A DNA stretch of 64,000 nucleotides, from positions 6,111-70,110 of IMG/VR virus record IMGVR_UViG_642918884_000001. The stretch is one strand, 5' to 3'. Under the pieces are notes generated by a model, which was not told where the DNA came from, searched no databases, and saw only the letters and a list, made by a program, of their open reading frames with translations. Position 1 is the stretch's first letter; every line of letters begins with the position of its first letter. Source of the stretch: a virus. Taxonomy: Duplodnaviria > Caudoviricetes. Position numbers and translations under genes: made by a program. Positions 2,919-60,102 of the stretch are shown here, piece by piece.

Positions 2919-3362
2919 ATGAACCGGACAGTCATTTCGCCGGAATCACCAGCACACCCGGCCAGCACCGACCACGCGATTTCTCTGGGCGGCAGGAAGG
3001 TTGAGCGGGTGTGGACCCCGGCATTTCCTCTTTCAAAGGAATGCCGGGAAGAATTGATTTTGCAATGTCAAGGATCTCCGGAAGAGATCTGCGGGCTGAT
3101 TTCCGATAAGATGGAGATCTTTTACATTGCAAATATCCACGAATTCCCAAGGGAGAACTTCTATTTCGATCTAGGGGAGTTCAAAATCGCCGCTGCCGAC
3201 ATCATCGGCAACGGTGAACGGATCATCGGCATGTTTCACACGCACCCCACTGGTATCCCGTGGCCGTCGCCGCGCGATATCGTCGGCTGGCCCAACCCGG
3301 CTCTCGGGTGGCGCTACTGGATAGCCACCAGGGGTGATGTCATCGAGTGGAGGCTAGGGTGA
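2919..3362 (+). CDS. JAB/MPN (Mov34) metalloprotease
   Basis: EEICGLI...IIGMFHTHPTGIPWPSPRD matches the JAMM motif E...HxH-x7-S-x2-D. Confidence 0.9.
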   Translation: MNRTVISPESPAHPASTDHAISLGGRKVERVWTPAFPLSKECREELILQCQGSPEEICGLISDKMEIFYIANIHEFPRENFYFDLGEFKIAAADIIGNGERIIGMFHTHPTGIPWPSPRDIVGWPNPALGWRYWIATRGDVIEWRLG

Positions 3363-5736: not shown

Positions 5737-6969
5737 ATGCCGAATATGTTGGCATATCAGGAATTCGCCGGAATGCCGATGATCGACGGTATTCCCGTCT
5801 TTCCGATCTTCGGTGGCACGCAGCCGGTCCAACAGGGCGGTTATGCGTCGTCCGCAGATCTCGTCACCCACACCGCCGATGGCGTGGATCTGAACGACCT
5901 CTGGGACATCGCGGCGCTGGCTCTCGAAATGTACGCCGAACAGCAGCAGACGTTGATCGACCTGCTCACCTTCCCGGTCGAAACGCCGGTCGAGGTCGTT
6001 CCGCAGATCGGCGAAATCAGCTTCGATGAGCTGACGGAATACGGCATTCCGACCACTGCGCAGCAGCAGGTGGAAATGTGGTCGATGGGTTACGACCTTC
6101 GCCACTACGGAAAGCGTCTCGGCTACACGTGGATGTTCCTCGCGGACGCCGATTCTCGCCAGATCGAAGCAATGCACAACGGCATGATGCTGGCCGACCG
6201 GCGACTCGTCTTCCGGAAGATCATGGAGGCGTTGTTCGACAACCGGATTCGCCGAACCAACATTCGCAACCAGCCGTACAACGTGTTCCCGCTGTACAAC
6301 GGTGTCGATGTCGGAATCGTGCCTCCGCCGTACAAGGGCAACACCTTCACCGCGACCCACAACCACTATCTGACGACCGGCAACACCACGCTCGATTCGT
6401 CGGACGTGGAGGATCTGTACACGCTGATCGCAGAGCACGGTTACGGTCTGGAAACCGGATCGACGTTCTACCTGCTCGCGAACAAGGCCGAAACCGACAA
6501 GATTCGGGGTTGGCGTCGGGGTGTCGTTTCTGCCAATGGCATCAACGCCACCTACGACTTCATTCCGGCGGCGAATCAGCCCGCCGTGATTCTGCCGAAC
6601 GCCGAAGGCTTGCTCGGTTCGCTGCCGCCTTCGACGTATCGCGGAATGCGCGTGATCGGCTCGTACGGTGACATTTACATCATCGAAGAGTCGTTCATTC
6701 CGCCCGGTTACATGCTCATGGTGGCATCGGGCGGCGCGGGCAACCTCGGCAACCCGGTCGGTTTCCGCCAGCACGCGAATCCGGCGATGCAGGGTCTTCG
6801 GATTCTGCCGGGTAACCAGCAGCGCTTCCCGCTGGTCGATTCGTTCTACGCGCATTCGTTCGGTACCGGCATCCGCCAGCGCGGCGGCGCGGCGATCATG
6901 CAGATCACCGACCAGCCGACGTACACGATTCCGAACGGGTACAAGAAGGGCACCGGCCTTCTGGCCTAG
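5737..6969 (+). CDS. Major capsid protein
   Basis: 410 aa, strong codon bias and position; DLVTHTADGVDLNDLW and FDELTEYGIP motifs; followed by a strong hairpin. Confidence 0.85.
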   Translation: MPNMLAYQEFAGMPMIDGIPVFPIFGGTQPVQQGGYASSADLVTHTADGVDLNDLWDIAALALEMYAEQQQTLIDLLTFPVETPVEVVPQIGEISFDELTEYGIPTTAQQQVEMWSMGYDLRHYGKRLGYTWMFLADADSRQIEAMHNGMMLADRRLVFRKIMEALFDNRIRRTNIRNQPYNVFPLYNGVDVGIVPPPYKGNTFTATHNHYLTTGNTTLDSSDVEDLYTLIAEHGYGLETGSTFYLLANKAETDKIRGWRRGVVSANGINATYDFIPAANQPAVILPNAEGLLGSLPPSTYRGMRVIGSYGDIYIIEESFIPPGYMLMVASGGAGNLGNPVGFRQHANPAMQGLRILPGNQQRFPLVDSFYAHSFGTGIRQRGGAAIMQITDQPTYTIPNGYKKGTGLLA

Positions 6970-32526: not shown

Positions 32527-32591
32527 GCGCGACTGGCAGAGTTTCGGGTTCGACTCCCGAACGCGCACGACGACAATCCGAAGAATTGTCG
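32527..32591 (+). ncRNA. tRNA-like element E5 plus hairpin
   Basis: GCGCG-actggcagagt-TTCGGG-TTCGACT-CCCGAA-CGCGC-ACGA, then CGACAAT/ATTGTCG. Confidence 0.8.
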
Positions 32592-32613
32592 CAATCAGGA
32601 AACGGACAGAATC

Positions 32614-32949
32614 ATGGAAGATCTGGAACTGTACGGCGAAGGCAAGGCAGTGCTCGGCGCTGGTACCGATCAGCTCGTGCTTGAAGTCTGGTACGACGGT
32701 CATTACGTGATCGACAACGATTCAGGCGAATCGGCAGAGACCTACGGCGTTCGGTTGATCACCGACACCGAAGACTACGAAAGCGCCGATATCTACGATC
32801 TGCAAGAGCGGACGCCGAACGTGGCCGAAGCGCGCCGACAGGTCGCCGCGATGCTCTGGCTTGCCAATCGCGAGGATTGGCCGGAATGGGTCACCGCGTG
32901 GGCGGCGCGGAACCGTCCAGAACTGGAACGTCTCGTTACGGCGGCGTAG
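32614..32949 (+). CDS. Hypothetical protein
   Basis: ATG 32614 preceded by GGAAACGGACAGAATC. Confidence 0.8.
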   Translation: MEDLELYGEGKAVLGAGTDQLVLEVWYDGHYVIDNDSGESAETYGVRLITDTEDYESADIYDLQERTPNVAEARRQVAAMLWLANREDWPEWVTAWAARNRPELERLVTAA

Positions 32950-33096: not shown

Positions 33097-33159
33097 CCGT
33101 GGATGGTCGAAATCGGGGTTCGACTCCCCGACACGGGCGACGAATCTCGCCGAGATTCG
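33097..33159 (+). ncRNA. tRNA-like element E6 plus hairpin
   Basis: CCGTG-gatggtcgaaa-TCGGGG-TTCGACT-CCCCGA-CACGG-GCGA, then CGAATCTC/GAGATTCG. Confidence 0.8.
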
Positions 33160-33180
33160 CAGAAAAGAAGGAAAACGGAC

Positions 33181-33516
33181 ATGTCGCAGGACAAGAGCAA
33201 GGAAACCGGACTCGTCTCGATGCACAGCGAGTGGGTCGGCAAGAGCTACGTTCGCACCGTGGCGCGCCGCGTGGGCAAGTCGGCAACCCTCATGGTGGAC
33301 GTGACCGAGTACGCCGACCGTCCGTCGAAGAAGCGCGCCAGCGCCGCAGCGCGCCACGCGGCGCGTGAGGCCAGCGCAACGCCGGTCAAGGCTCCCGCTG
33401 GTTCGGTGATCTTCGAGCACGAGAGCGTCAAGCAGACGAACCGTCTGGACGAGGACGGCAACCTCGTGCCGTTGCGGACGCGGATGCGGACCACGACGTT
33501 CGCATTCGGAATCTGA
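33181..33516 (+). CDS. Hypothetical protein
   Basis: AAGGAAAACGGAC-ATG; strong codon bias. Confidence 0.8.
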   Translation: MSQDKSKETGLVSMHSEWVGKSYVRTVARRVGKSATLMVDVTEYADRPSKKRASAAARHAAREASATPVKAPAGSVIFEHESVKQTNRLDEDGNLVPLRTRMRTTTFAFGI

Positions 33517-33546
33517 CGGAATCCGACCAGAAAAGGAAACGGAACA

Positions 33547-33909
33547 ATGACGTACACAGTGCAGGTCACGCCCGAAGTGCTCGGGCAGGGTCACCGGATC
33601 TGGATCTCGGAACCGCCGAACAACAATCCGGAGGAACCGCCGATCAACACACAGGTCTACCTCAAGAACGACGATCCGTTGCTCTTGGCGTTCGGCCAGC
33701 TCGTGATGGCGATCCGGGATCGTGGGCGGATCGAAGGGGAAATCCGCTCGAAGGACGCGGAGATCACCGCGTACTCGGCGCAGATTTCGGAGATTCGTTC
33801 GGAGTTCCGCGTTTACCGGGAACAGAACGAACAACAGAAATCCGTCGAAAAGGTCAAGGCGGCTGCCGAACAGGCTCGGGCTGCCGCCGATAAGGCGAGG
33901 AACAAGTGA
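33547..33909 (+). CDS. Hypothetical coiled-coil protein
   Basis: AAGGAAACGGAACA-ATG. Confidence 0.8.
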   Translation: MTYTVQVTPEVLGQGHRIWISEPPNNNPEEPPINTQVYLKNDDPLLLAFGQLVMAIRDRGRIEGEIRSKDAEITAYSAQISEIRSEFRVYREQNEQQKSVEKVKAAAEQARAAADKARNK

Positions 33910-34342: not shown

Positions 34343-34426
34343 TATTTGGGCTAGCCGAAAGTCGTGCTAGTCTGAATTCGGGAGGAAACGAGAAGGGTTC
34401 TCGTCCCGATTTGAAAGGAAACGGAC

Positions 34427-35638
34427 ATGAGCTATCACGATCAGTATTACCTCAACGCCGGTCACATTCTCGTGGGCGGTGTGCAGGGTCTCAAGGACCG
34501 GCTCACCGGCGAATCGCTCGAAGGCGGCTGGCGTCGGCCCGCGTGGTGGTACAACCCGCGTCTCGAAGACGTGCTCAACCCCACGCATTTCCCCGGCTAC
34601 CTGCCGATCTCGCTGATCAAGGAAAAGCTTTTCGGCTGGACCGCGCTGGAATCGGCGAAGATCGTTGCCCACGTCGAGATCGACGGCAAGATGGTCGAAA
34701 TCAACTGCGGAAACTACAAGGCGATCATTCGCGGTGACCGGGTGTGGGAGGACGTTCCGCACGACGACGACGGCAATCCGGTCGGAAACATCGGAAATCC
34801 GGAATCCGTTCTCTCGATCATGAGCAACGAATACGGCACTCACCAGCCGCAGGAATTGTTCATCAACATGACGAGCGAACTCTTGCAGGGTTCGGACAAC
34901 ATCGGCGCGACCGGCGCTGGCCTGCTCAAGTGGGGTCGGGTGTGCTACATGGAGGTCTCGATTCCGCAGACCATGCACAACGACCGCGCCGGTTTCGACT
35001 ACCGTCCGAATCTGTTGATCTACACCAGTTTCGACGGTTCGCTGAAAACCACGCTGGCCCGTACGATCACGGCGACGGTTTGCGACAACACGCTGCAAAT
35101 CGCCGCAAGCGAGGCCAAGCGCGCCGGAACCGCGCTGACCATTGGTCACACCCGGTTGTCGTCTGACCGGATGCCCGAAGCTCGGCAGGTTCTGGGAATC
35201 ATCGAACAGGAATCCGACGATTTCAACACGCTTCTGGACGAATGGGCGGCAACGCCGGTTTCGACCAAGCAGTTCGAAGCGTGGTTGGACGAGGTTTTGC
35301 CGGTTCCCGAGGTCAAGGTGATCGACGGCAAGGCGAAGACGAATTCGCAGACCATCGTTCTGAACAAGCGCGAGGCAATCGGAGATCTGTACTACACCGA
35401 TGAGCGCGCGGCGACGTGGGTCGGTACCAAGCTCGGCGTTCGCCAGGCGTGGAACACCGCACATCACCACAAGTTCCGTTCGGGCAACGCCAAGCAGTTC
35501 GACGGAAACAAGACGCTGGCCCGCGTCGAGTCGAACATGATGCGTTCGCTCAAGATGGACAAGAACGGTGAAACCGAGATTGCACGCTCGGATGCGTTCG
35601 CGATGGAAAAGTTGGACCTGGTACTGTCCAATTCATAA
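34427..35638 (+). CDS. DUF932/DUF945-family phage/plasmid protein
   Basis: LLIYTSFDGSLKTTLARTITATVCDNTL...IGHT matches the family's xxSxDGS...VCxNTL...H pattern. Confidence 0.8.
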   Translation: MSYHDQYYLNAGHILVGGVQGLKDRLTGESLEGGWRRPAWWYNPRLEDVLNPTHFPGYLPISLIKEKLFGWTALESAKIVAHVEIDGKMVEINCGNYKAIIRGDRVWEDVPHDDDGNPVGNIGNPESVLSIMSNEYGTHQPQELFINMTSELLQGSDNIGATGAGLLKWGRVCYMEVSIPQTMHNDRAGFDYRPNLLIYTSFDGSLKTTLARTITATVCDNTLQIAASEAKRAGTALTIGHTRLSSDRMPEARQVLGIIEQESDDFNTLLDEWAATPVSTKQFEAWLDEVLPVPEVKVIDGKAKTNSQTIVLNKREAIGDLYYTDERAATWVGTKLGVRQAWNTAHHHKFRSGNAKQFDGNKTLARVESNMMRSLKMDKNGETEIARSDAFAMEKLDLVLSNS

Positions 35639-35648
35639 ACAGACCGGA

Positions 35649-35710
35649 GCGTGACCAGCAGACGCCGGGGTGCGAGTCCCCGGCACGCACGACGATTCCA
35701 GACGGAATCG
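35649..35710 (+). ncRNA. tRNA-like element E8 plus hairpin
   Basis: GCGTG-accagcagacg-CCGGGG-TGCGAGT-CCCCGG-CACGC-ACGA, then CGATTCC/GGAATCG. Confidence 0.75.
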
Positions 35711-35739
35711 ACCACAAATCAAATAGAAACGGACACAGA

Positions 35740-35934
35740 ATGAGCGGAGACACGCAAAACAAAACGTGGCAATACGTGAAGGCTAGCGATATCGTCACGG
35801 GCGACGTTACGCGCCGAGGCGAAATCGCGGCAACCATCGTGAGCCTGTCCCCTGGTACTCGGACGCTGGCATTCGTGGGCGGCGCGCCGAAACTGACGAT
35901 CTCGGACCATGCGCCGATTGAGGTTCTGCGGTGA
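35740..35934 (+). CDS. Small hypothetical protein
   Basis: GAAACGGACACAGA-ATG; VKASDIVTGD motif. Confidence 0.7.
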   Translation: MSGDTQNKTWQYVKASDIVTGDVTRRGEIAATIVSLSPGTRTLAFVGGAPKLTISDHAPIEVLR

Positions 35935-36157: not shown

Positions 36158-36337
36158 ATGGCTCATTCAGCTCTTGTGCGCGATTACAGAGAAGAACGGG
36201 AGCGCCAAGAGACCGCAAACGAGACCGTGCTTTCCATGCGTGGGGAGACCGAATACTGGAAAGCAACCGGAGGACAACTCATCGATTTCAAAGCTTGGCT
36301 TTTGGCCCACAAGGGCAGAAACGGACAACCGGAGTGA
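36158..36337 (+). CDS. Small hypothetical protein
   Basis: MAHSALVRDYREERERQE...LIDFKAWL; GGAAAG upstream. Confidence 0.65.
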   Translation: MAHSALVRDYREERERQETANETVLSMRGETEYWKATGGQLIDFKAWLLAHKGRNGQPE

Positions 36338-36950: not shown

Positions 36951-37268
36951 ATGGCCGGTCACATTGGGCTAGTTCCCGTTCCCGACGACGGGGAACTTTC
37001 TGATTTCATTCAGAAAATGATCGCGAATGATTCAGAAACGTGTGACCGGCACACCGCAGAACTTGCCGAGACTCTGCAATACACACGGGAGGCCGACGAA
37101 CCAGAGGAATTCGCCTACGCTCGGATGCTTAACTTTCTGGCCGACAATCTCGAACAGAAAGAACTCATCCATTTGTGCGCCGCCGGATTGTGGCGCATTC
37201 ACACTCTGAACAAAACGCCGGACAAGGCGAATCTAATTGCATTTCCAACAGAAACGGACGAAGAATGA
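36951..37268 (+). CDS. Hypothetical protein
   Basis: AGGAG RBS; operon packing. Confidence 0.75.
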   Translation: MAGHIGLVPVPDDGELSDFIQKMIANDSETCDRHTAELAETLQYTREADEPEEFAYARMLNFLADNLEQKELIHLCAAGLWRIHTLNKTPDKANLIAFPTETDEE

Positions 37269-37831
37269 CGGAGCACAAGTCTGAACTCATGAAGCAAACG
37301 GCTTTGGCGAACGGCTGGAAATCGGAAGTAATTCCGAATCTGGACAAGTTCAACGAAACCGGCGATATCAACGATATCGTCTGGAATGTCTATTGCCAGC
37401 GTGGGCTTGAGGCTATGCACGTCGTTTTCACCGGGGAGCGCCAGACCAGCGCCGTGTACAAGTATGGCAGCCATCACCGGCTCACCCCGGCACGCCGTGC
37501 GCCGGTCATGCGCTTGCTCACCGGCACTCCCGACCCGAAAAAGCTCAAGGGTCGGCAGTCCAGCGAAGAACTCATGGCGAACCACAGGCAAGTTCCGTGG
37601 GCCGACGACGCGCCAGCTCTGGAAATTCTCATGGCCGCGCTCGGCAAGGATATTTCGTGGATTCGCAGAATTGACGGGGAAACACTCACCGCGTATATTC
37701 CAGCGGAATCAAACAAGAAATCCAAGAACTACCGGGTTTATTCCAACAAGAACGGGGACCGATTCTTGGAATGGACGAACACCGAAGGGTTTCACACCGT
37801 TCGGCTTGACGCAATCATTTCAGTAGGCTAG
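37265..37831 (+). CDS. Hypothetical protein
   Basis: ATGA coupling; preceded by GAAACGGACGAAGA. Confidence 0.8.
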   Translation: MTEHKSELMKQTALANGWKSEVIPNLDKFNETGDINDIVWNVYCQRGLEAMHVVFTGERQTSAVYKYGSHHRLTPARRAPVMRLLTGTPDPKKLKGRQSSEELMANHRQVPWADDAPALEILMAALGKDISWIRRIDGETLTAYIPAESNKKSKNYRVYSNKNGDRFLEWTNTEGFHTVRLDAIISVG

Positions 37832-37835
37832 CCTA
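37806..37835 (+). promoter_or_regulatory. Putative SigA promoter overlapping the perfect palindrome TAGGCTAGCCTA
   Basis: TTGACG (37806-11), 17-bp spacer, TAGCCT (37829-34). Confidence 0.65.
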
Positions 37836-37859
37836 GAGACCGACGAAAGGAAAACGGAC

Positions 37860-38003
37860 ATGGGATACGGAATCGGACTGATCTGTGGGATTGCGATTAT
37901 CTTCATCGCGCTCATGGGCGGACCGACGATTTCGGTCGGCTGGCTTATCTTCGGAATCATCCTCGCGCTGGTCGCGCTCGCGCTGATTTTGGTGGACGCA
38001 TGA
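37860..38003 (+). CDS. Small membrane protein (2 TM)
   Basis: AAAGGAAAACGGAC-ATG; MGYGIGLICGIAIIFIALMGGPTISVGWLIFGIILALVALALILVDA. Confidence 0.7.
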   Translation: MGYGIGLICGIAIIFIALMGGPTISVGWLIFGIILALVALALILVDA

Positions 38004-38188: not shown

Positions 38189-40197
38189 GCGATCCAAAAG
38201 TGCGCTGGCGGGTCGGGCTGTGGTCGTCAAAGAAACGGGTGTGGGTCACGTTTCCGTTTGACCGGCGTGTGATCGAAATGCTCAAAGAACGCGTGCCGGG
38301 TGGCCGGTGGGATTCCAAGGAAAAGTTCTGGCATTTTCCCCTGGATATGGACGTGTGCCGTGATATCCGTTCTGTCGCAGACCATTTCGGATTCGGGCTG
38401 GCAATCGAACCGGAACTTGCGTCGTGGGCGCGTAAAGAGAAGACCCGATACTCGCATGTGCTTGCGCCAGAAGCGAATACGGACCAGTGGCAAAATCTGC
38501 TGCCGCGCTTGCAATCTGAACGTCCGGTCTTGTTCAGCGCGATGCGTGACATCGCGACCAAGGCAGACGGCACGCAGGGAACGCCGTGGCAGATTCTCGG
38601 CGCGGCGTTCATGGCCGCACAGAAGCGCGTCTTGCTGGCCGACCAGCCGGGTCTCGGCAAGACGATCCAAACCCTTTCGGCGGTAGCCGAATTGGGGATC
38701 TCCGGTTGCATCCTCGTGGTAGCTCCGAGGTCGGCTGTGGCCGTGACATGGCCCGAGGAAATCGCGCAATGGCTTGGCGAAGACGAAAAGATTTTCGTCA
38801 TTAACGCCACGATCAAGCCTGCCGAACGACGCGAACAGGTTCGGGCTGCCCGAGATTGGGCGGCGAAAGGTAACCGTTCGTGGGTACTTTGCGGTCCGAA
38901 CTATCTGCGAATCAAGGCCGATGTTGACGACAACACCGGCGATTATCTTCGGGATGACAAGGGCAACAAGATCATTCGCGCGGTGAACGAATGCGTGCCA
39001 GATCTGTTCGGCGTCAAGTGGTCTGCGGTGATCGTGGACGAATCGCACCAAACCCTTGCTGGCGCAACAGGAAACAAAAAGCGCCAGTCGTCGCAACGTC
39101 TCGGTCTCGGCGCTCTCGACACCGCGCCGGATGCGTTGCGAATCGCAATCTCTGGAACACCCTTCCGAGGCAAGACGGAAAACCTGTGGGGAACGCTCAA
39201 CTGGCTGTACCCCGACAAGTACACGTCCTATTGGAATTGGATCAAGCGACACTACGGAATCAAAGATTCCGGCTCGTCGTTCGGAAGCGGAATTGTCAAG
39301 GGCGACAACATTCTTGACGAGAAGCGATTCTTTTCCGAGCTGAAACCGGTGATGGTTCGCCGCACGAAAGCCGAAGTTCGCGAGTCGCTGCCGCCGAAGA
39401 TGTACGGCGGAACTCATCTGGACCCGAATGACCCGACGACGCCGGTTGCCGTGTGGTTGCCCATGTCGCCGAAGCAAGAGAAGCAGTACCGCGAGATCGA
39501 ACGCGAAGCGCTGATCAACATCGGCGGCGAAGATGAGATCACGGTCAACGGCGTGCTCGCAGAAATGACCCGCTGCAAGCAGATTGCGAACTCTTGCCTC
39601 AAGACCGATGGTTTCAAGTCCGATGGCAACCCCAAAGTTGTCCCGGTTTTCCCGTCAAACAAGGCGGAATGGATTCACGATTTCCTGGTGGATCGAATCG
39701 AGAATGGCACGAAAACCATTGTGGCATCTCAGTTTACGGGATTCCTCAACACGCTGAGTGCCGAACTTGAGAAGAAAGGAATCAAGCACTATCTCTACAC
39801 TGGCGCGACAAATGAGCCGGAACGCAAGAGAATTCGTAAGGAATTCCAGTCAGAATCCGGCGACATGGTTGTTCTTTTGAACACCAAATCCGGTGGCGTT
39901 TCGCTCACCTTGGATCTGGCCGACGACGTTGTAATCGTTGACCAGACATGGATTCCCGATGATCAGGAACAGGTAGAGGACCGCGCGCACCGCGTGAGCC
40001 GAAACCACAATGTGGTGATCTGGAATCTTGCGTCGCTCGGCACTATTGACGAAGATATTGCCGTGCTCAATACTGAACGAGGCGAAGCGATTTCGTCTAT
40101 TCTGGAAAAGCAGCGTGGCGTGAGCTACGCGAAGAAGCTCTACGCCAAGGTTGCGGCCCGCGTAGACAAGAGAGAATCGGACAAGCAGGCATCATGA
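38185..40197 (+). CDS. SNF2-family (SF2) DNA helicase
   Basis: LLADQPGLGKT (Walker A), VIVDESH, SGTP, GGVSLTL and QVEDRAHR motifs. Confidence 0.95.
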   Translation: MSDPKVRWRVGLWSSKKRVWVTFPFDRRVIEMLKERVPGGRWDSKEKFWHFPLDMDVCRDIRSVADHFGFGLAIEPELASWARKEKTRYSHVLAPEANTDQWQNLLPRLQSERPVLFSAMRDIATKADGTQGTPWQILGAAFMAAQKRVLLADQPGLGKTIQTLSAVAELGISGCILVVAPRSAVAVTWPEEIAQWLGEDEKIFVINATIKPAERREQVRAARDWAAKGNRSWVLCGPNYLRIKADVDDNTGDYLRDDKGNKIIRAVNECVPDLFGVKWSAVIVDESHQTLAGATGNKKRQSSQRLGLGALDTAPDALRIAISGTPFRGKTENLWGTLNWLYPDKYTSYWNWIKRHYGIKDSGSSFGSGIVKGDNILDEKRFFSELKPVMVRRTKAEVRESLPPKMYGGTHLDPNDPTTPVAVWLPMSPKQEKQYREIEREALINIGGEDEITVNGVLAEMTRCKQIANSCLKTDGFKSDGNPKVVPVFPSNKAEWIHDFLVDRIENGTKTIVASQFTGFLNTLSAELEKKGIKHYLYTGATNEPERKRIRKEFQSESGDMVVLLNTKSGGVSLTLDLADDVVIVDQTWIPDDQEQVEDRAHRVSRNHNVVIWNLASLGTIDEDIAVLNTERGEAISSILEKQRGVSYAKKLYAKVAARVDKRESDKQAS

Positions 40198-40801: not shown

Positions 40802-41484
40802 GATCTTGCAGCGAACACGGGGACAACAGCAACGTTTGCGATTCCGCAGGTTGCTTTCCGAGCGCCGGTTCATCGCCGTGGGAGCGCGGTGAAGAACTGA
40901 CCGAACTTGACCGGCCTTTCCAAGAGCCGGTCCCCACGGCAGAAACCGTGGACTGGTCAACGATGGGCGCGAATAAGATTGTCGCACTGCCCGATCCGAA
41001 TACGGTTTACGTTCTGATGGAAGACGCCGGTTACGACGGCAAAAATATCTCGTGCGTTTTCTCTGACGAAGCCGAGGCGAATTCCTATGCAGAGGTTCGC
41101 AATCAGTTCGCCGAACACGGAATCGTCTACGAGGTTGAGCCGTGGCCGATTGGCCGACCGGGATGCGACGAAACAGAGCCACACTACGACGGACCCGTGT
41201 GGGAAATCCGGTGGGATTTGCAGTACAACGCAGACCGCGAAGTTGCGCCAATGCTTAAGCACCGCTGGCATTCTGGCCGGATACCTCCGGACTGCGGTTT
41301 CAAGTACAACCCGACCGACCGAGGTTTCATCCTGTGGGGAATGGACCGTGATGCGGTGATTCGGCAGGCCGAAGCCGAAGCGGCCAAACGGGTTTCGGCA
41401 GAACTGGAACGACTGCGAATCGCTGCCGAACAGAGGGCGAATCGCACAAGATTCCGGATCGATTCGGAGCACGAATTCGGATGA
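40798..41484 (+). CDS. Hypothetical protein
   Basis: ATGA coupling; GGAGA RBS. Confidence 0.7.
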   Translation: MRSCSEHGDNSNVCDSAGCFPSAGSSPWERGEELTELDRPFQEPVPTAETVDWSTMGANKIVALPDPNTVYVLMEDAGYDGKNISCVFSDEAEANSYAEVRNQFAEHGIVYEVEPWPIGRPGCDETEPHYDGPVWEIRWDLQYNADREVAPMLKHRWHSGRIPPDCGFKYNPTDRGFILWGMDRDAVIRQAEAEAAKRVSAELERLRIAAEQRANRTRFRIDSEHEFG

Positions 41485-41804
41485 GTACCCTCTGGATTTC
41501 TCTCGCGTCCGTCTCTGCTTTTCTGGTCTACGCCGGTTCGTGCCTGTTGACCTTTCGGGCATTCATGGTAATGAGAAAAGAAACGGAATCGGTCAAAAAC
41601 CGAGTTTCGGCGCTTGAGACGCACATGTTACGTTTCCAGCAGCCAGAAGCTATCGCCGATGACATGGAAGCGACCGCTGACCTGATTGAGGCCCGCATGG
41701 CGGGTCGGCAGGCGATGCCGAGACCGGGGAGTCTGCCTCATGCCAGAATCGCCAAACGGCGCGATCCACGCGGCAAGACCGGTTGGAACAAGGGCAAGTC
41801 ATAG
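41481..41804 (+). CDS. Membrane-anchored hypothetical protein
   Basis: N-terminal TM followed by a coiled coil. Confidence 0.7.
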   Translation: MSTLWISLASVSAFLVYAGSCLLTFRAFMVMRKETESVKNRVSALETHMLRFQQPEAIADDMEATADLIEARMAGRQAMPRPGSLPHARIAKRRDPRGKTGWNKGKS

Positions 41805-41851
41805 CGCTATAGTGAAAGTCCAACTTTCTTCGAACTAAGTTCGCGAAAGAC

Positions 41852-41880
41852 TGGACACGCTCACCGAAATCGACTAAGTT
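41852..41880 (+). promoter_or_regulatory. Putative SigA promoter
   Basis: TGGACA-17 bp-TAAGTT upstream of the 41944 gene. Confidence 0.55.
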
Positions 41881-41943
41881 AGAAAACATCAACGGACACC
41901 CCAAACGTCCACTCTCAACAACACCAGAGAAAAGGAAAACATC

Positions 41944-42528
41944 ATGACGGACACCCTGGACACCACCGAGGTCACCGAGGACACCAAGGCCGCGCAGACC
42001 GGCGAGTCGGGCGAAGAGACCGACGAGAACGGCGAGACCAAGGCGCAGGCGCGCGATTTCAGCAAGTTCCGCGAGAACCACAAGGAACTGGCCGACTTCA
42101 TCAACTCGCACCCCGAGTTCGTCGCTTCGGAGCTGGCCGCGCTGGAACCGGGACAGGTGAAGGCGGTTCTGGCGCTGCGGGCCGACTTCAACAAGTTGCC
42201 CGAGCAGGTCGCCAAGCGCGCGGAGCGCAAGAAGGAACTCGAAGCCGAGAAGGCCAAGTTCGCCGGTCTGTCGCCCGAGCAGATCAAGGCCACCAAGGCT
42301 GCCGACCGCGCGGCGAAGCAGGCCGAGAAGATGCGCGAGAAGGCCGAAGAGGCGATGCGGCGCGCCGAGGAATTGAAGGCCGCTGCCAGTGGCAGCGCCG
42401 CCGATCTCGCGGCAGCCGTCGAAGCGCAGACCGCCGAGGCAGAGCCGGTGGCCGAGGTCGAGACCCCGGCAGAGCCGGTGGCCGACGAGAAGCCCAAGCG
42501 GCTCGGTCGGACTCGTCGGTCCAGCTAG
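41944..42528 (+). CDS. Ala/Glu/Lys-rich coiled-coil protein, probably highly expressed
   Basis: Near-exclusive G/C third positions; AAAAGGA RBS; own promoter; basic tail KPKRLGRTRRSS. Confidence 0.85.
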   Translation: MTDTLDTTEVTEDTKAAQTGESGEETDENGETKAQARDFSKFRENHKELADFINSHPEFVASELAALEPGQVKAVLALRADFNKLPEQVAKRAERKKELEAEKAKFAGLSPEQIKATKAADRAAKQAEKMREKAEEAMRRAEELKAAASGSAADLAAAVEAQTAEAEPVAEVETPAEPVADEKPKRLGRTRRSS

Positions 42529-42532
42529 ACAG

Positions 42533-42705
42533 CCGGAACTGACCCGGTGATGAGCGCCGGTTGGGGTGTGGCAACTGACCAACCGGCGTTCTGAAAGCCA
42601 CAGCGTATTCTTGTCCGTTTCCGCTGTGGTTCTCAGAACGAAAACGCTCGAAACAACTGAATACACACAAACACACAAACACCTAACGACAGTAATCAGT
42701 ACCGG
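42533..42705 (+). ncRNA. Structured intergenic RNA, candidate sRNA antisense to the start-associated motif
   Basis: Stems: CCGGAACTGA/TCAGTACCGG, GAGCG/CGCTC, CCGGTTGG/CCAACCGG and CGTTCTGA..GCCACAGCG/CGCTGTGGT..TCAGAACG; loop TATTCTTGTCCGTTTC. Confidence 0.7.
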
Positions 42706-42725
42706 ACACAGAAACGAGCAGTTTC

Positions 42726-42974
42726 ATGAACGATCCGCAGGAAGCTTATCGGCAGTGGGCCGAAAAGCAGGCCGCGATGGGACGCACGGTCGCCCCGACC
42801 ACAGCGCCACAGTTCAATTCTGGGCTAGCCGAAAAGGCACCCAAACTCTACGATGAGCTTTTTGCCAAGTTCATCGAACTCACCGATTCGACTCCCGGCA
42901 ACTGGGCGCGCACGAGTGTTGGCTCATGGCAGAACCAGATCACCGGAACGATCTTCACGGTGAGTCTCGGATGA
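42726..42974 (+). CDS. Hypothetical protein
   Basis: ORF coupled (ATGA) to the next gene. Confidence 0.7.
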   Translation: MNDPQEAYRQWAEKQAAMGRTVAPTTAPQFNSGLAEKAPKLYDELFAKFIELTDSTPGNWARTSVGSWQNQITGTIFTVSLG

Positions 42975-43366
42975 GTCGCGAAACGTCGAAAATCACGACG
43001 TTCAAATGCAATTCCTGTGGAACCACACAGGTTATCGGCGGCGACTATCCCGAGTCCGTGATGGACGAACGCGGGTGGACAATCGATGAAGAAATCCTTG
43101 GGAACCAAGTGGATTTGTGCGCCGATTGCACCGCAGAGCTGAAAGACTTCATCCGCTGGGAAGATCCGGTTTGCGAAAGCTGCCGGAACAGCCAGCAAGG
43201 CAAGTCGTGGACCGGATGCACGTGTGCCGGTGAATCAGCAGCGCCGAAAGTTATCGAATCCGATGAAATTCCCTGTTGCTGCGCAGGGATCAATCCGGCA
43301 GACGGCGAAGAGATTTGCGAACCGTGCGCCAACGACAATCACAAAGGATGCGTGGGACCGCTGTGA
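42971..43366 (+). CDS. Cys-rich (multi-Zn-finger) protein
   Basis: Multiple CxxC motifs (CNSC, CADC, CESC, CEPC). Confidence 0.7.
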   Translation: MSRETSKITTFKCNSCGTTQVIGGDYPESVMDERGWTIDEEILGNQVDLCADCTAELKDFIRWEDPVCESCRNSQQGKSWTGCTCAGESAAPKVIESDEIPCCCAGINPADGEEICEPCANDNHKGCVGPL

Positions 43367-44664
43367 CGACCGAAAACATTGTTGACGAAAACCCCAAGTT
43401 TTTCATCCGAAACTCAGAACGGTCGAGTTTCAAAACCTGCCCGCAACAGTGGCAATGGGCATGGGAAATGGGTTTGGTTCCGGCGATGCCGCGACAGGAC
43501 GCACGCTGGTTTGGCTCTGGCCTGCATGTCGCGCTGGCCGAGTGGTACCAGCCCGAGGGAGCGAAGAACGGGTTCGTGCGTGGCCGTGATCCGCGCGAAA
43601 CGTTCATCGAATACTGCGGGTCGATTTACACCACGATTGCCGCACAGCCGTTTTTCGCCGAACAGGGCGAAGCCGAATACGTCGAAGCCAAGAAACTTGG
43701 CATCGATATGCTGGCCGGTTACATGGAACACTACGACGGCACCGATCCGACCGTCGAAGTGATTTTCCCCGAATACCGTTACAGCACAAAGGTTCCGTAC
43801 AATTCGCGCCAAAAGGCGAATATGGAGATCAACGATCTCGCGCAAAACTGGCCGGATTGGATGAAGAACTTGGACGACAAGTACATCGCAATCATTGTCG
43901 GAACTTTCGACATGGTTTTCCGCGACCAGCTTGACGGTTTCGTGAAGCTCATGGACCACAAGTCGGCGAAGCAGAAGACTTCCGGCGCTCACCTGGTGAA
44001 GGACGATCAGGCCGGAACCTACATCGCGGTCTCGACGGATTTCCTTCGGAAGCGAAAGATCTTGCGCGGCACCGAATCTGTCGTCGGCATGACGTACAAC
44101 TATTTGCGCAAGGGTCGCAAAAATCCCGATGACACATTCGATGAGCAAGGCCGCAAGCGCAACTTGCCGACCAAAAAGGACTACGCCGAAGCGCTCGCGA
44201 CCCGAAACGTCGGAATCGCAGCCGAATTGGAGAAACTTTCCAAGCCAAAGCTAGAGGAAATCGCGGCAAAGATGCCTGCCGATTTCAAGGTTTACGGCGC
44301 GGTTTCAAAAGTCCAACCGGCACCGTTGTTTTGGCGCGAAGATGTGCGCCGGTCGAAGAAGAATCGGATTCGGCAGATTGAGCGCATTGCCGACGACGCC
44401 GAAATGCTCGCTCGCGCAAGGGCTGGCGATATCCCGATCATGAAGACACCGGGTGATCACTGCGCGTGGTGCGACTACCGCGACCTCTGCGACGTTCACG
44501 AGGACAACGAAGATGTGGAGGGATTCATCAAAGACGTGTTCGTGCAACGCGATCCGTACGCCGATCACCAGGACGGCGCGGTGAACTCGAAAACGTCTGC
44601 CGCGAACGACAAGTCGGTGAAGTCGAACGTGCGCAAGGTCGATTTTGGAGGGAGTTTCGGATGA
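43363..44664 (+). CDS. Cas4/RecB-like PD-(D/E)XK exonuclease
   Basis: RNSERSSFKTCP, FGSGLH, GTFD...DHKS and HCAWCDYRDLC (Fe-S cysteines). Confidence 0.9.
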   Translation: MTTENIVDENPKFFIRNSERSSFKTCPQQWQWAWEMGLVPAMPRQDARWFGSGLHVALAEWYQPEGAKNGFVRGRDPRETFIEYCGSIYTTIAAQPFFAEQGEAEYVEAKKLGIDMLAGYMEHYDGTDPTVEVIFPEYRYSTKVPYNSRQKANMEINDLAQNWPDWMKNLDDKYIAIIVGTFDMVFRDQLDGFVKLMDHKSAKQKTSGAHLVKDDQAGTYIAVSTDFLRKRKILRGTESVVGMTYNYLRKGRKNPDDTFDEQGRKRNLPTKKDYAEALATRNVGIAAELEKLSKPKLEEIAAKMPADFKVYGAVSKVQPAPLFWREDVRRSKKNRIRQIERIADDAEMLARARAGDIPIMKTPGDHCAWCDYRDLCDVHEDNEDVEGFIKDVFVQRDPYADHQDGAVNSKTSAANDKSVKSNVRKVDFGGSFG

Positions 44665-47658: not shown

Positions 47659-47682
47659 AATCGTTTAGAAACGGACACATTC

Positions 47683-47910
47683 GTGGGAAACAAACTTTAC
47701 TGCATCACTCGTGAGGACGTGATCGTCCAAACGCGAGACTATTTCGTTCTGGCCGAAGACAAAGACGCGGCCGATTCCAAAGTCACCAACGGCATGTTCC
47801 TGTCGGAATCCGAAGCCGTGACCGTCGATACGCAAGCCAGCCGGACACTGGACATTGTGGAAATCGACCCCAATCGCGCCGAAGACGAGAACGGAAACTT
47901 GCTGCCGTGA
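47683..47910 (+). CDS. Hypothetical protein
   Basis: GTG preceded by GAAACGGACACATTC. Confidence 0.7.
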   Translation: MGNKLYCITREDVIVQTRDYFVLAEDKDAADSKVTNGMFLSESEAVTVDTQASRTLDIVEIDPNRAEDENGNLLP

Positions 47911-48230
47911 AATTCGAAGAAGAAGCCCGACCGGGCGTGAATTCCGAAGAGGTCACAGAGGTTTTGCTACGGGATCAGCACTGGTATCCCGTGCGCGACA
48001 ACTCATTTCGCATTTTCTCCCCCGTCGAAGCGGGCCACCGTGCGCGTTCGGGAAATCAAGCAGGCGCGTATTTACGCTTCCGGAACCTCGAAACTGGCAT
48101 GTGGATCGAAGCTCCACTTTCGTCGCTGGTCGCGGTAGGATATCCAGATCCGGAGCGTGTCAACGAGATACGTAAAATTCGCGAACGGGAGGTCGCGAAT
48201 TCTGAAACGGACGGAGGAAAGGGGAAATGA
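47907..48230 (+). CDS. Hypothetical protein
   Basis: GTGA/ATGA coupling. Confidence 0.7.
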   Translation: MKFEEEARPGVNSEEVTEVLLRDQHWYPVRDNSFRIFSPVEAGHRARSGNQAGAYLRFRNLETGMWIEAPLSSLVAVGYPDPERVNEIRKIREREVANSETDGGKGK

Positions 48231-59472: not shown

Positions 59473-59874
59473 GTGGGAATTGCAATGGACGAGTACGAGG
59501 CACGTGAGTGTGGGGAGAATCCCGGTTTGGACGAATCGTCGCTCGGTCACGGACTAGACCGAACGGTGCGAATCGATTCGCACACAACGGTTCTCGCGCC
59601 AAAGACAGTCAACGGGCGTGCGACGATCATGCTCTCGTGCCGTTGCGGCGCAACGACTTTCGTTCCGTTGGTCGTGAAAGAGGACGAAGACACCGGACGG
59701 TCGGAAATCGTTCTCGACGTTCCGGAAGACTGGTACGCGGACGTGGATTATCCGCACGGTCGCCAGCCCGACGAACGCTACATCGTCCGTTGCCCCGAGC
59801 ATCGCGGCGCACTGTTCGGCCACATGCTCCGACCGGTCGATCCGTTCGCCGAGGCCGAATCCGAGCAGGGGTAG
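59473..59874 (+). CDS. Hypothetical protein (CRC...CPEH)
   Basis: GAAGGA RBS before GTG 59473 (start uncertain). Confidence 0.6.
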   Translation: MGIAMDEYEARECGENPGLDESSLGHGLDRTVRIDSHTTVLAPKTVNGRATIMLSCRCGATTFVPLVVKEDEDTGRSEIVLDVPEDWYADVDYPHGRQPDERYIVRCPEHRGALFGHMLRPVDPFAEAESEQG

Positions 59875-60102
59875 TTATCGACTGTCAGTCGAAAACTGGT
59901 TTGCGACTGGGAGTCGAAAACCTGGTTGGGCTGGCCGAGGTCAAGATGTAGTAGCAGGTCAGCACGCGCGTCCATAGATCTTGTGAACGCAACGATCTTG
60001 GGCGCGTGGTGCTACCGTGATAGGTCTGTGCCGGGGTGATTCGTCCCCCGGCGCAGGTCTCAGTCGTGACTTGACACGACAAACGGACGAAAGTGGGATT
60101 TT

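Follow-up and report, generated by a model that had tools for sequence, protein, structure and literature searches.

A structured non-coding region in a virus genome includes a hairpin whose loop contains a stretch exactly complementary to a motif that stands just ahead of about ten gene starts in the same genome. The genome is a 70,110-nt virus record (IMG/VR IMGVR_UViG_642918884_000001), kin of the Cluster-H-type mycobacteriophages. The stretch that we analysed, hereafter the window, comprises 64,000 nt (positions 6,111 to 70,110 of the record), and its numbering is used throughout unless record positions are named. In the reading that we favour, which we hold to be about evenly poised between right and wrong, the loop of this hairpin (hairpin 2, 42588-42639) is an antisense seed that is transcribed with the rightward genes, pairs with the motif-bearing start regions and most likely represses them. 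The observations that carry this reading are computed: a structure and its covariation, the conservation of the loop, its complementarity to the motif, the concentration of loop complements at gene starts, and the co-variation of loop and target.

Structure of the hairpin region

Hairpin 2 lies in a non-coding gap of 197 nt between an open reading frame (ORF) of 194 amino acids (aa; 41944-42528) and one of 82 aa (42726-42974), both on the + strand. A first-pass annotation of this DNA had proposed a multi-stem fold at 42533-42705, and RNAfold reproduces its layout: the + strand of the interval folds at -64.3 kcal/mol against a shuffle mean of -45.3 kcal/mol (s.d. 4.35; z = -4.38), a stability attained by 0 of 200 shuffles. 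The - strand is nearly as stable (-63.6 kcal/mol, z = -3.10). Read on the + strand, the fold consists of an outer stem with one mismatch (42533-42542, CCGGAACTGA, with 42696-42705, TCAGTACCGG), a junction stem (GAGCG, 42552-42556, with CGCTC, 42645-42649), hairpin 1 (42557-42586), whose 8-bp GC-rich stem (CCGGTTGG, 42557-42564, with CCAACCGG, 42579-42586) closes a 14-nt loop, and hairpin 2, an 18-bp stem (arms 42588-42605 and 42622-42639) with a 1×1 mismatch at the 11th pair from the loop. An unpaired CA-rich tail (42640-42725), delimited by the predicted fold and by alignment with the Konstantine type of mycobacteriophage, leads up to the next start codon. The 16-nt loop of hairpin 2 (TATTCTTGTCCGTTTC, 42606-42621) is predicted to be unpaired except for isolated single pairs; its stretch 42612-42621, the proposed antisense seed, is the exact complement of GAAACGGACA.

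Rfam returned nothing relevant up to E = 10 in the window between 40000 and 45000 and nothing up to E = 1 in six related loci, with 6C included in both searches, and a tRNA and tmRNA scan gave no match. The interval 42566-42856 was considered as a protein-coding candidate and rejected, because indels of 1, 5 and 7 nt separate it from Konstantine.

A motif ahead of gene starts

GAAACGGACA has six exact copies in the window, and the same six in the whole 70,110-nt record. Five are on the + strand (32599, 34418, 35726, 36318 and 47668), and the sole copy on the - strand is the hairpin loop itself (42612-42621), which confirms the earlier observation that the loop is exactly antisense to the start motif. 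The reversed pattern, used as a control, has 0 forward and 0 reverse copies. With one mismatch allowed, 17 matches are found against 7.69 expected, a number reached by 1 of 100 shuffles. We examined 11 motif-like sites between 32.5 and 48.3 kb, counting ORFs of at least 40 aa, and 10 of them have a start codon (nine ATG, one GTG) 0-13 nt further on, in agreement with the original count of about ten gene starts. In its general form, the start-associated motif of the record is (G)GAAACGGAC(A), at the ribosome-binding position of about ten non-structural genes, and the loop exposes its complement, UGUCCGUUUC(C). Where the motif sits in these genes, the ordinary genes of these phages have GAAAGGA or GAAAGGAG ribosome-binding sites; the motif GAAACGGA resembles a GAAAGGA-type site plus one extra C.

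All of the sites are on the + strand. GGAAACGGACA lies 5 nt ahead of the ATG of a 111-aa ORF (32598-32616; phrog_17421) and overlaps the ATG of a DUF932 gene (34417-34429; gene 34427-35638, DUF932 match E = 8.8e-29), where it is an 11-nt perfect complement of the loop. GAAACGGACA is followed after 4 nt by the ATG of a 64-aa ORF (35726-35742; predicted loop duplex -19.8 kcal/mol) and after 5 nt by the GTG of a 75-aa ORF (47668-47685; phrog_15802). The variant AAAACGGACA overlaps the ATG of a 111-aa ORF (33172-33183; phrog_16414) and that of a 47-aa ORF (37851-37862). A second variant, GAAACGGACG, lies 4 nt before the ATG of a 188-aa ORF (37251-37267; phrog_5307; predicted duplex -19.8 kcal/mol), a site conserved in Konstantine and Barnyard, and 13 nt before the ATG of a 140-aa ORF (48204-48229; phrog_1342). 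GGAAACGGA (33535-33549; record position 39645) precedes the ATG of a 120-aa ORF (phrog_17169) by 3 nt, and the one-mismatch variant GAATCGGACA (40174-40196) precedes that of a 90-aa ORF by 10 nt, at a position where Konstantine has the exact motif. The exception is the exact copy at 36318-36327, after which no ORF of at least 40 aa begins. Save for the DUF932 protein, the products of the motif-bearing genes are without assigned function.

Short inverted repeats are visible by eye 10-25 nt upstream of several motif copies (32565-32595, 33135-33165 and 35690-35715) and recall the extended start-associated sequences of Cluster K.

Conservation of stem and loop

The nearest records in phage collections are eight distinct Konstantine-type mycobacteriophages, 78.5-79.7% identical over 42033-42708. 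Further relatives, namely Barnyard, DrLupo, Patience, Madruga and several uncultured contigs, came from protein and profile searches with the upstream ORF. Two adjacent hairpins recur in seven lineages: the window's record, the Konstantine type, Barnyard, DrLupo, the groups L030/L031/L032/L052 and L013/L033/L034, and L029. The upstream protein in the lineages with hairpin 2 is only 34-81% identical to that of the window. In Patience, Madruga, L021 and L025, only a canonical GC-rich terminator hairpin with a U-tract stands behind the upstream gene.

Three observations describe how hairpin 2 has evolved across the seven lineages. First, in the alignment of its inner 10 pairs, all 70 of 70 cells are standard pairs, and 8 of the 10 pairs show changes on both sides, that is, compensatory changes. 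None of 500 shuffles matches the pairing or the covariation score, and pairing falls to 34-57% when the partner arm is slid by 1-3 columns as a control. Second, the loop, which ranges from 15 to 25 nt in length, keeps the core TCCGTTTC in five of the seven lineages and the one-base-shorter GTCGTTTC in L029; the L013 loop is unrelated. The first-pass annotation had made its proposal depend on conservation of the loop in relatives, and the core is indeed kept though the stems are completely replaced. Constancy of the loop against a turnover of both arms suggests that the loop acts through its sequence. Third, a 1×1 mismatch at the 11th pair (42595 with 42632 in the window) recurs in five lineages (A-C, C-C, U-U, A-C and A-C), which are all those with a stem of more than 10 bp other than L013, and thus looks like a conserved feature of hairpin 2.

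The closed three-way junction initially described around these hairpins is predicted in the window, but it is not conserved: the closed architecture (outer stem plus GAGCG/CGCTC) is specific to the window, and it is the two adjacent hairpins that recur. In the Konstantine region the closed fold does not clearly recur (z = -2.03, with an alternative pairing), and the same holds for the Barnyard type; in the L013 lineage the whole structure is very stable (z = -6.61).

Other conserved sequence was seen around the locus. In the unpaired tail, CCTAACGACAGTAATCA (42682-42698) is identical in the window and the Konstantine type, whose flanking ORFs are only about 79% identical, and an AGTAA...CCGG element resembling this block lies 3′ of hairpin 2 in Barnyard, DrLupo, L030 and L013. 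Patience and two uncultured relatives share GAGCGAACGGA(A/T)ATTCGT immediately ahead of the start of the gene that follows the terminator (L014:2010-2045, L025:~3010-3045 and L029:1115-1150). An L013-type contig has a tRNA-like stretch, GGTTCAAATCCCAC, after a chance match to GAAACGGA (L035:2360-2430).

Loop complements at translation starts

The proposal also implied that complements of the loop should be concentrated at translation starts, and in Konstantine they are. Using annotated starts in place of the ORF-based start criterion, we found 14 + strand matches of at least 9 nt to the loop complement, 11 of which end 1-11 nt before an annotated start, against a background of 2.6% (P = 1.3e-15); the genome holds 13 forward copies of GAAACGGA. 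The window's record has 11 matches of at least 9 nt on the + strand and, apart from the loop itself, none on the - strand. By a crude ORF criterion 8 of these 11 lie before starts (background 0.36, P = 0.014); the P value of this ORF-based test is weak because the background amounts to 0.35-0.375 in GC-rich DNA. When the loop was scored for duplex energy against every 24-nt segment, motif-bearing starts came out on top in both the window's record and Konstantine; in the window's record, the best start regions give predicted duplexes of -17 to -19.8 kcal/mol. Only one motif-like start, GGAAACGGATG, is found about 6.2 kb downstream in L052, a contig of the L030 type. The proposed regulon, roughly ten starts in the window, shrinks to one or two targets in the Barnyard-type relatives.

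Co-variation of loop and target at the DUF932 gene

In Barnyard and in DrLupo, the longest genome-wide match to the loop complement, searched on either strand with the loop excluded, is a unique sequence, the 12-mer GAGAAACGGAAT in the former and the 14-mer GAGAAACGGATTCG in the latter. Each stands immediately ahead of the conserved ATG in the DUF932 orthologue, the gene whose start bears GGAAACGGACA in the window and in Konstantine. The anticipated co-variation of loop and motif in relatives is thus seen at the start region of one orthologous gene, across four lineages. When each loop is compared with each DUF932 start, the own-lineage matches span 11, 10, 12 and 14 nt, whereas the loops of Barnyard and DrLupo match each other's starts by 10 nt, and matches across the two subclusters span 8 nt; the exception is the G000 loop, which matches the Konstantine start by 12 nt and its own by 11. 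At least three changes in the loop have a counterpart in the target (GGAAAC versus GAGAAAC; GGAC versus GGAA or GGAT; and A versus T, Barnyard versus DrLupo). The L030-type contigs end before the DUF932 gene. The distant DUF932 loci L041-L046 (30-39% identity), which have ordinary ribosome-binding sites, are uninformative, and a single-sequence locus search reached Konstantine only. We propose that the DUF932 gene is the oldest and most conserved target.

Strand and transcription context

The upstream 194-aa ORF is a homologue of Konstantine gp68 (phrog_12020, E = 1.3e-87); it matches no Pfam family above that family's cutoff and is without functional assignment. The downstream 82-aa ORF has no family match, and its start lacks a motif copy. 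All annotated genes lie on the + strand in Konstantine (95 of 95) and in Barnyard (109 of 109), so transcription through the hairpin should run in the direction that puts the complement of the motif in the loop. The G-U events in the stems fit the + strand in four cases (k=9 in the window; k=8, 16 and 17 in Konstantine) and the - strand in one (k=14, common to Barnyard and DrLupo).

In a metatranscriptome library, one contig of 365 nt runs across 42393-42738; it departs from the window by a single letter and by 12 nt inserted within the ORF, and it therefore joins the end of the upstream ORF, both hairpins and the next start. Contigs of this kind indicate neither the strand nor the ends of a transcript, and because DNA can be present in such libraries the contig is weak evidence of transcription. 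Besides this spanning contig, runs X17-X20 contain only short or diverged pieces, and the missing cover elsewhere in 41000-44000 is uninformative. A contig from run X17 has a 12-nt insertion at position 42435 of the window, which adds a repeat unit to the repetitive C-terminal portion of the gp68-like ORF.

Parallels in Cluster K, Cluster EF and other systems

Start-associated sequences (SAS) were reported in 2011 for Cluster K mycobacteriophages and in 2020 for Cluster EF Microbacterium phages, without known function or ligand. In the available portions of the two descriptions, they are highly conserved, asymmetric motifs that occupy the ribosome-binding position, a short distance ahead of start codons that are mostly ATG; a genome has about 10-19 of them, pointing one way and located in its non-structural half, plus a rare reverse copy (PMC3203893, PMC7302621). 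Neither account, as far as these portions extend, links the reverse copy to a hairpin loop (PMC3203893, PMC7302621), and the Cluster K account notes extended inverted repeats just upstream at about half of the sites (PMC3203893). The window's motif is likewise asymmetric, repeated in one orientation, located at the ribosome-binding position and accompanied by a lone reverse copy, but it reads GAAACGGACA, as against an SAS consensus of GGGATAGGAGCCC or GGGAAAGGACCCC. Judged by its sequence, which departs from the consensus GGGATAGGAGCCC, it is analogous to the Cluster K SAS family and not a member of it. Because the motif nevertheless belongs to the known class of start-associated sequences of Clusters K and EF, the regulon idea, initially presented as undescribed, is only partly new. 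Our literature search, whose coverage stopped short of most subscription journals and of the supplementary figures on the Adephagia, Angelica and CrimD reverse sites, found no Cluster H account of the motif and no RNA complementary to SAS.

A comparable arrangement occurs in the Cluster K phage Anaya. Its single reverse SAS copy lies at record position 59870, in a 385-nt non-coding gap between gp96 and gp97. The gene strand reads GGCCUCCUAUCCC at this position, and RNAfold places CCUCCUAUCC in a 10-nt hairpin loop (L054:9820-9940; record 59820-59940). Taken alone the fold is weak (z = -1.79). The region is conserved in 150 records, and when 10 phages spread over the identity range were compared, the hairpin appeared in their consensus structure with some compensatory changes. 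The complementary loop is found in 5 of the 10 Cluster K phages sampled (Anaya, Murucutumbu, Niklas and SgtBeansprout, with a variant in Amohnition) and is absent from Yuna, Marshawn, Keshu, SirPhilip and Pixie, of which Pixie is listed as motif-bearing in the available part of the Cluster K description (PMC3203893). In Cluster EF, the whole genome of AnnaSerena (L064 and L065) has ten forward motifs and no reverse copy of at least 10 nt; it thus lacks a loop-type partner, and the generalisation to Cluster EF fails. The relation between loop and motif is recurrent, not universal.

Among known regulatory RNAs, the closest mycobacterial comparison is the 6C small RNA (sRNA). According to the available portion of one account, searches for orthologues of Hfq, ProQ and CsrA in M. 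tuberculosis were unsuccessful, and the account cites 6C as an sRNA whose C-rich loops bind several mRNAs with no need of a chaperone (PMC8628891). In the proposed reading, the element described here shares with 6C and with chaperone-independent sRNAs of Gram-positive bacteria that have pyrimidine-rich loop seeds a seed exposed in a loop and directed at the purine-rich ribosome-binding regions of several mRNAs, without Hfq (in part PMC8628891). It differs from 6C in that it is phage-encoded, its seed is not a run of C, its proposed targets share an engineered-looking motif, and it has no Rfam match. Its position behind a gene is that of an intrinsic terminator or of an sRNA derived from a 3′ untranslated region (UTR), from which it is set apart by a large loop (15-25 nt) and the lack of a U-tract. 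The c4 antisense RNA of phages P1 and P7 is transcribed in the same direction as its targets, and its loops pair over the ribosome-binding site. A single operon is the target of c4; the RNA proposed here would act on about ten scattered gene starts.

Proposed mechanism and alternative explanations

Under the antisense reading, the hairpin RNA would be made with the rightward genes as a 3′UTR or intergenic RNA and would perhaps later be processed to a separate sRNA. Its loop would pair with the motif-bearing initiation regions over 9-12 contiguous bases, at a predicted energy of about -17 to -20 kcal/mol, and pairing would occlude the ribosome-binding site and the start codon, turning the genes down. 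Because the pairing would cover bases beside or over the start codon, it most likely lowers translation. Four elements of this scheme are inferred: the existence of the RNA as such, activity of the + strand, pairing inside cells, and repression, not activation, as the outcome. The comparative tests applied to the reading left it standing.

Several results weigh against this reading. First, the L013/L033/L034 lineage keeps the hairpin with an unrelated loop. No complement of the L013-lineage loop longer than 8 nt is present on the + strand of the 12.5 kb examined, and the DUF932 orthologue of that lineage (33% identity, E = 6e-50) has an ordinary ribosome-binding site. A hairpin kept without complementarity therefore implies that the scaffold has, or once had, a role independent of the motif. 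Second, loop complements stand at starts in 5 of 6 cases in Barnyard and 2 of 5 in DrLupo, which is no numerical enrichment (P = 0.031 and P = 0.6, against a crude background of 0.36-0.375); both genomes have few motif-bearing starts and one long match each. By duplex energy, the DUF932 start lies outside the 16 best segments in Barnyard and is only level with - strand segments in DrLupo, and we relied on exact matches for these two phages because G-rich segments swamped the energies of their long C-rich loops. In Konstantine, the loop has a C facing an A in most motifs, so most duplexes there stop at 9-10 bp. Third, the hairpin is more stable as the + strand only in Konstantine, L029 and L013. 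In Barnyard (-26.3 versus -22.0) and DrLupo (-26.8 versus -19.3) the - strand has the lower energy, and in the window's record the two strands are about equal. The promoter that the first-pass annotation had placed at 41852 was not recovered, as neither a sigma-70-like promoter, there or elsewhere, nor a + strand terminator consensus was found in 41400-43000. Finally, the annotated starts of the DUF932 genes lie 60 nt (Barnyard) and 108 nt (DrLupo) further upstream, which puts the loop match inside the annotated ORFs. Both annotations (Barnyard gp56 and DrLupo gp57) probably overextend the gene: similarity to the proteins of the other lineages sets in at the ATG next to the motif, and two 1-nt indels separate the two genomes within the supposed extension. 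A conserved TTAAGTGGACTAGCCTAG within that extension (L018:10380-10470 and L036:4770-4905) resembles a -10-type signal, and similar, TAGGCTAGCCTAG-like elements stand ahead of other genes, for example at 37820-37835 of the window.

One alternative, which we consider unlikely, is that the motif is a site for a sequence-specific phage or host protein acting on DNA or mRNA, with the hairpin copy serving as an inverted autoregulatory or titrating site and the co-change following the specificity of the protein. A protein of drifting specificity would give the same site-to-site co-variation, a further point against the antisense reading, and the comparison of hairpin energies on the two strands is ambiguous. 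The Cluster K authors, in the available part of their description, left a protein or an RNA ligand open for SAS and favoured DNA-binding proteins for the extended repeats (PMC3203893). A protein that reads single-stranded mRNA, however, would not bind the complementary loop, and a binder of double-stranded DNA needs no 18-bp arms that covary while their sequence changes. The matched stretch shifts and lengthens from lineage to lineage (GGAAACGGACA, GAGAAACGGAAT and GAGAAACGGATTCG), which is typical of base pairing and not of a fixed footprint, and forward copies of the motif are tied to start codons on one strand only.

Rather doubtful, too, is the explanation that hairpin 2, lying behind a strongly expressed gene, mainly serves the structure of the transcript, as a 3′-end stabiliser, an RNase processing site or a weak terminator, and that the loop match has no function in trans. 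It would account for the plain terminator at the hairpin position in distant relatives, for the L013 lineage, where the hairpin is retained with an unrelated loop, and for those Cluster K lineages in which the analogous hairpin is retained with a loop that lacks complementarity to the motif. Yet hairpin 2 is unlike a terminator: its loops are of 15-25 nt (16 nt in the window), it is followed there by GAAAAC and not by a U-tract, and no terminator is called on the + strand in 41400-43000. Hairpin 1 also lacks a U-tract in the window, though it is at its position that distant relatives place their canonical terminator. A structural role alone leaves unexplained both the loop core that persists across replaced stems and the unique 12- and 14-nt matches at the same gene start.

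It is improbable, in our assessment, that the loop pairs with the motif to an effect other than repression, either activating translation, by opening structure or acting with the ribosome, or mimicking the pyrimidine-rich 16S rRNA tail and competing for purine-rich ribosome-binding sites in general. What prompts this explanation is that the motif GAAACGGA is an ordinary site with an extra C, which the loop UCCGUUUC answers with a matching extra G, and that the Anaya loop CCUCCUAUCC contains what we take to be the canonical anti-Shine-Dalgarno core. Pairing directly before or over a start codon, as predicted here, usually blocks initiation.

Finally, it is very improbable that the inverted repeat acts as DNA, for instance as a single-stranded hairpin that signals a replication origin: the element does sit among replication genes, between the helicase and the nuclease and polymerase genes, with a fold about equally good on both strands and an adjoining CA-rich low-complexity tract, but nothing ties an origin signal to a translation-start motif, the stems contain G-U-type pairs, which are weak in DNA, and no iterons or AT-rich tract were seen around the element.

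Implications for start-associated sequences

The antisense reading gives SAS-type motifs a concrete candidate ligand, a conserved hairpin that presents the complementary sequence in its loop, and Anaya provides a second instance that is unrelated in sequence. Extending it, we put forward only tentatively, as a generalisation more probably wrong than right, that the SAS of actinobacteriophages are address labels for phage-encoded anti-SAS loops. One hairpin RNA per genome would set the translation of early or non-structural genes, label and loop would co-evolve, and Cluster-H-like phages and Cluster K would each have evolved the arrangement on their own. The long-standing question of SAS function thereby becomes directly testable. 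If the antisense reading is true, label and RNA would form a programmable pair for mycobacterial genetics; the conservation of these ribosome-binding regions far beyond what pairing with the ribosome needs would be explained; and the phages would have a compact means of timing or tuning a set of genes through translation in a host without Hfq.

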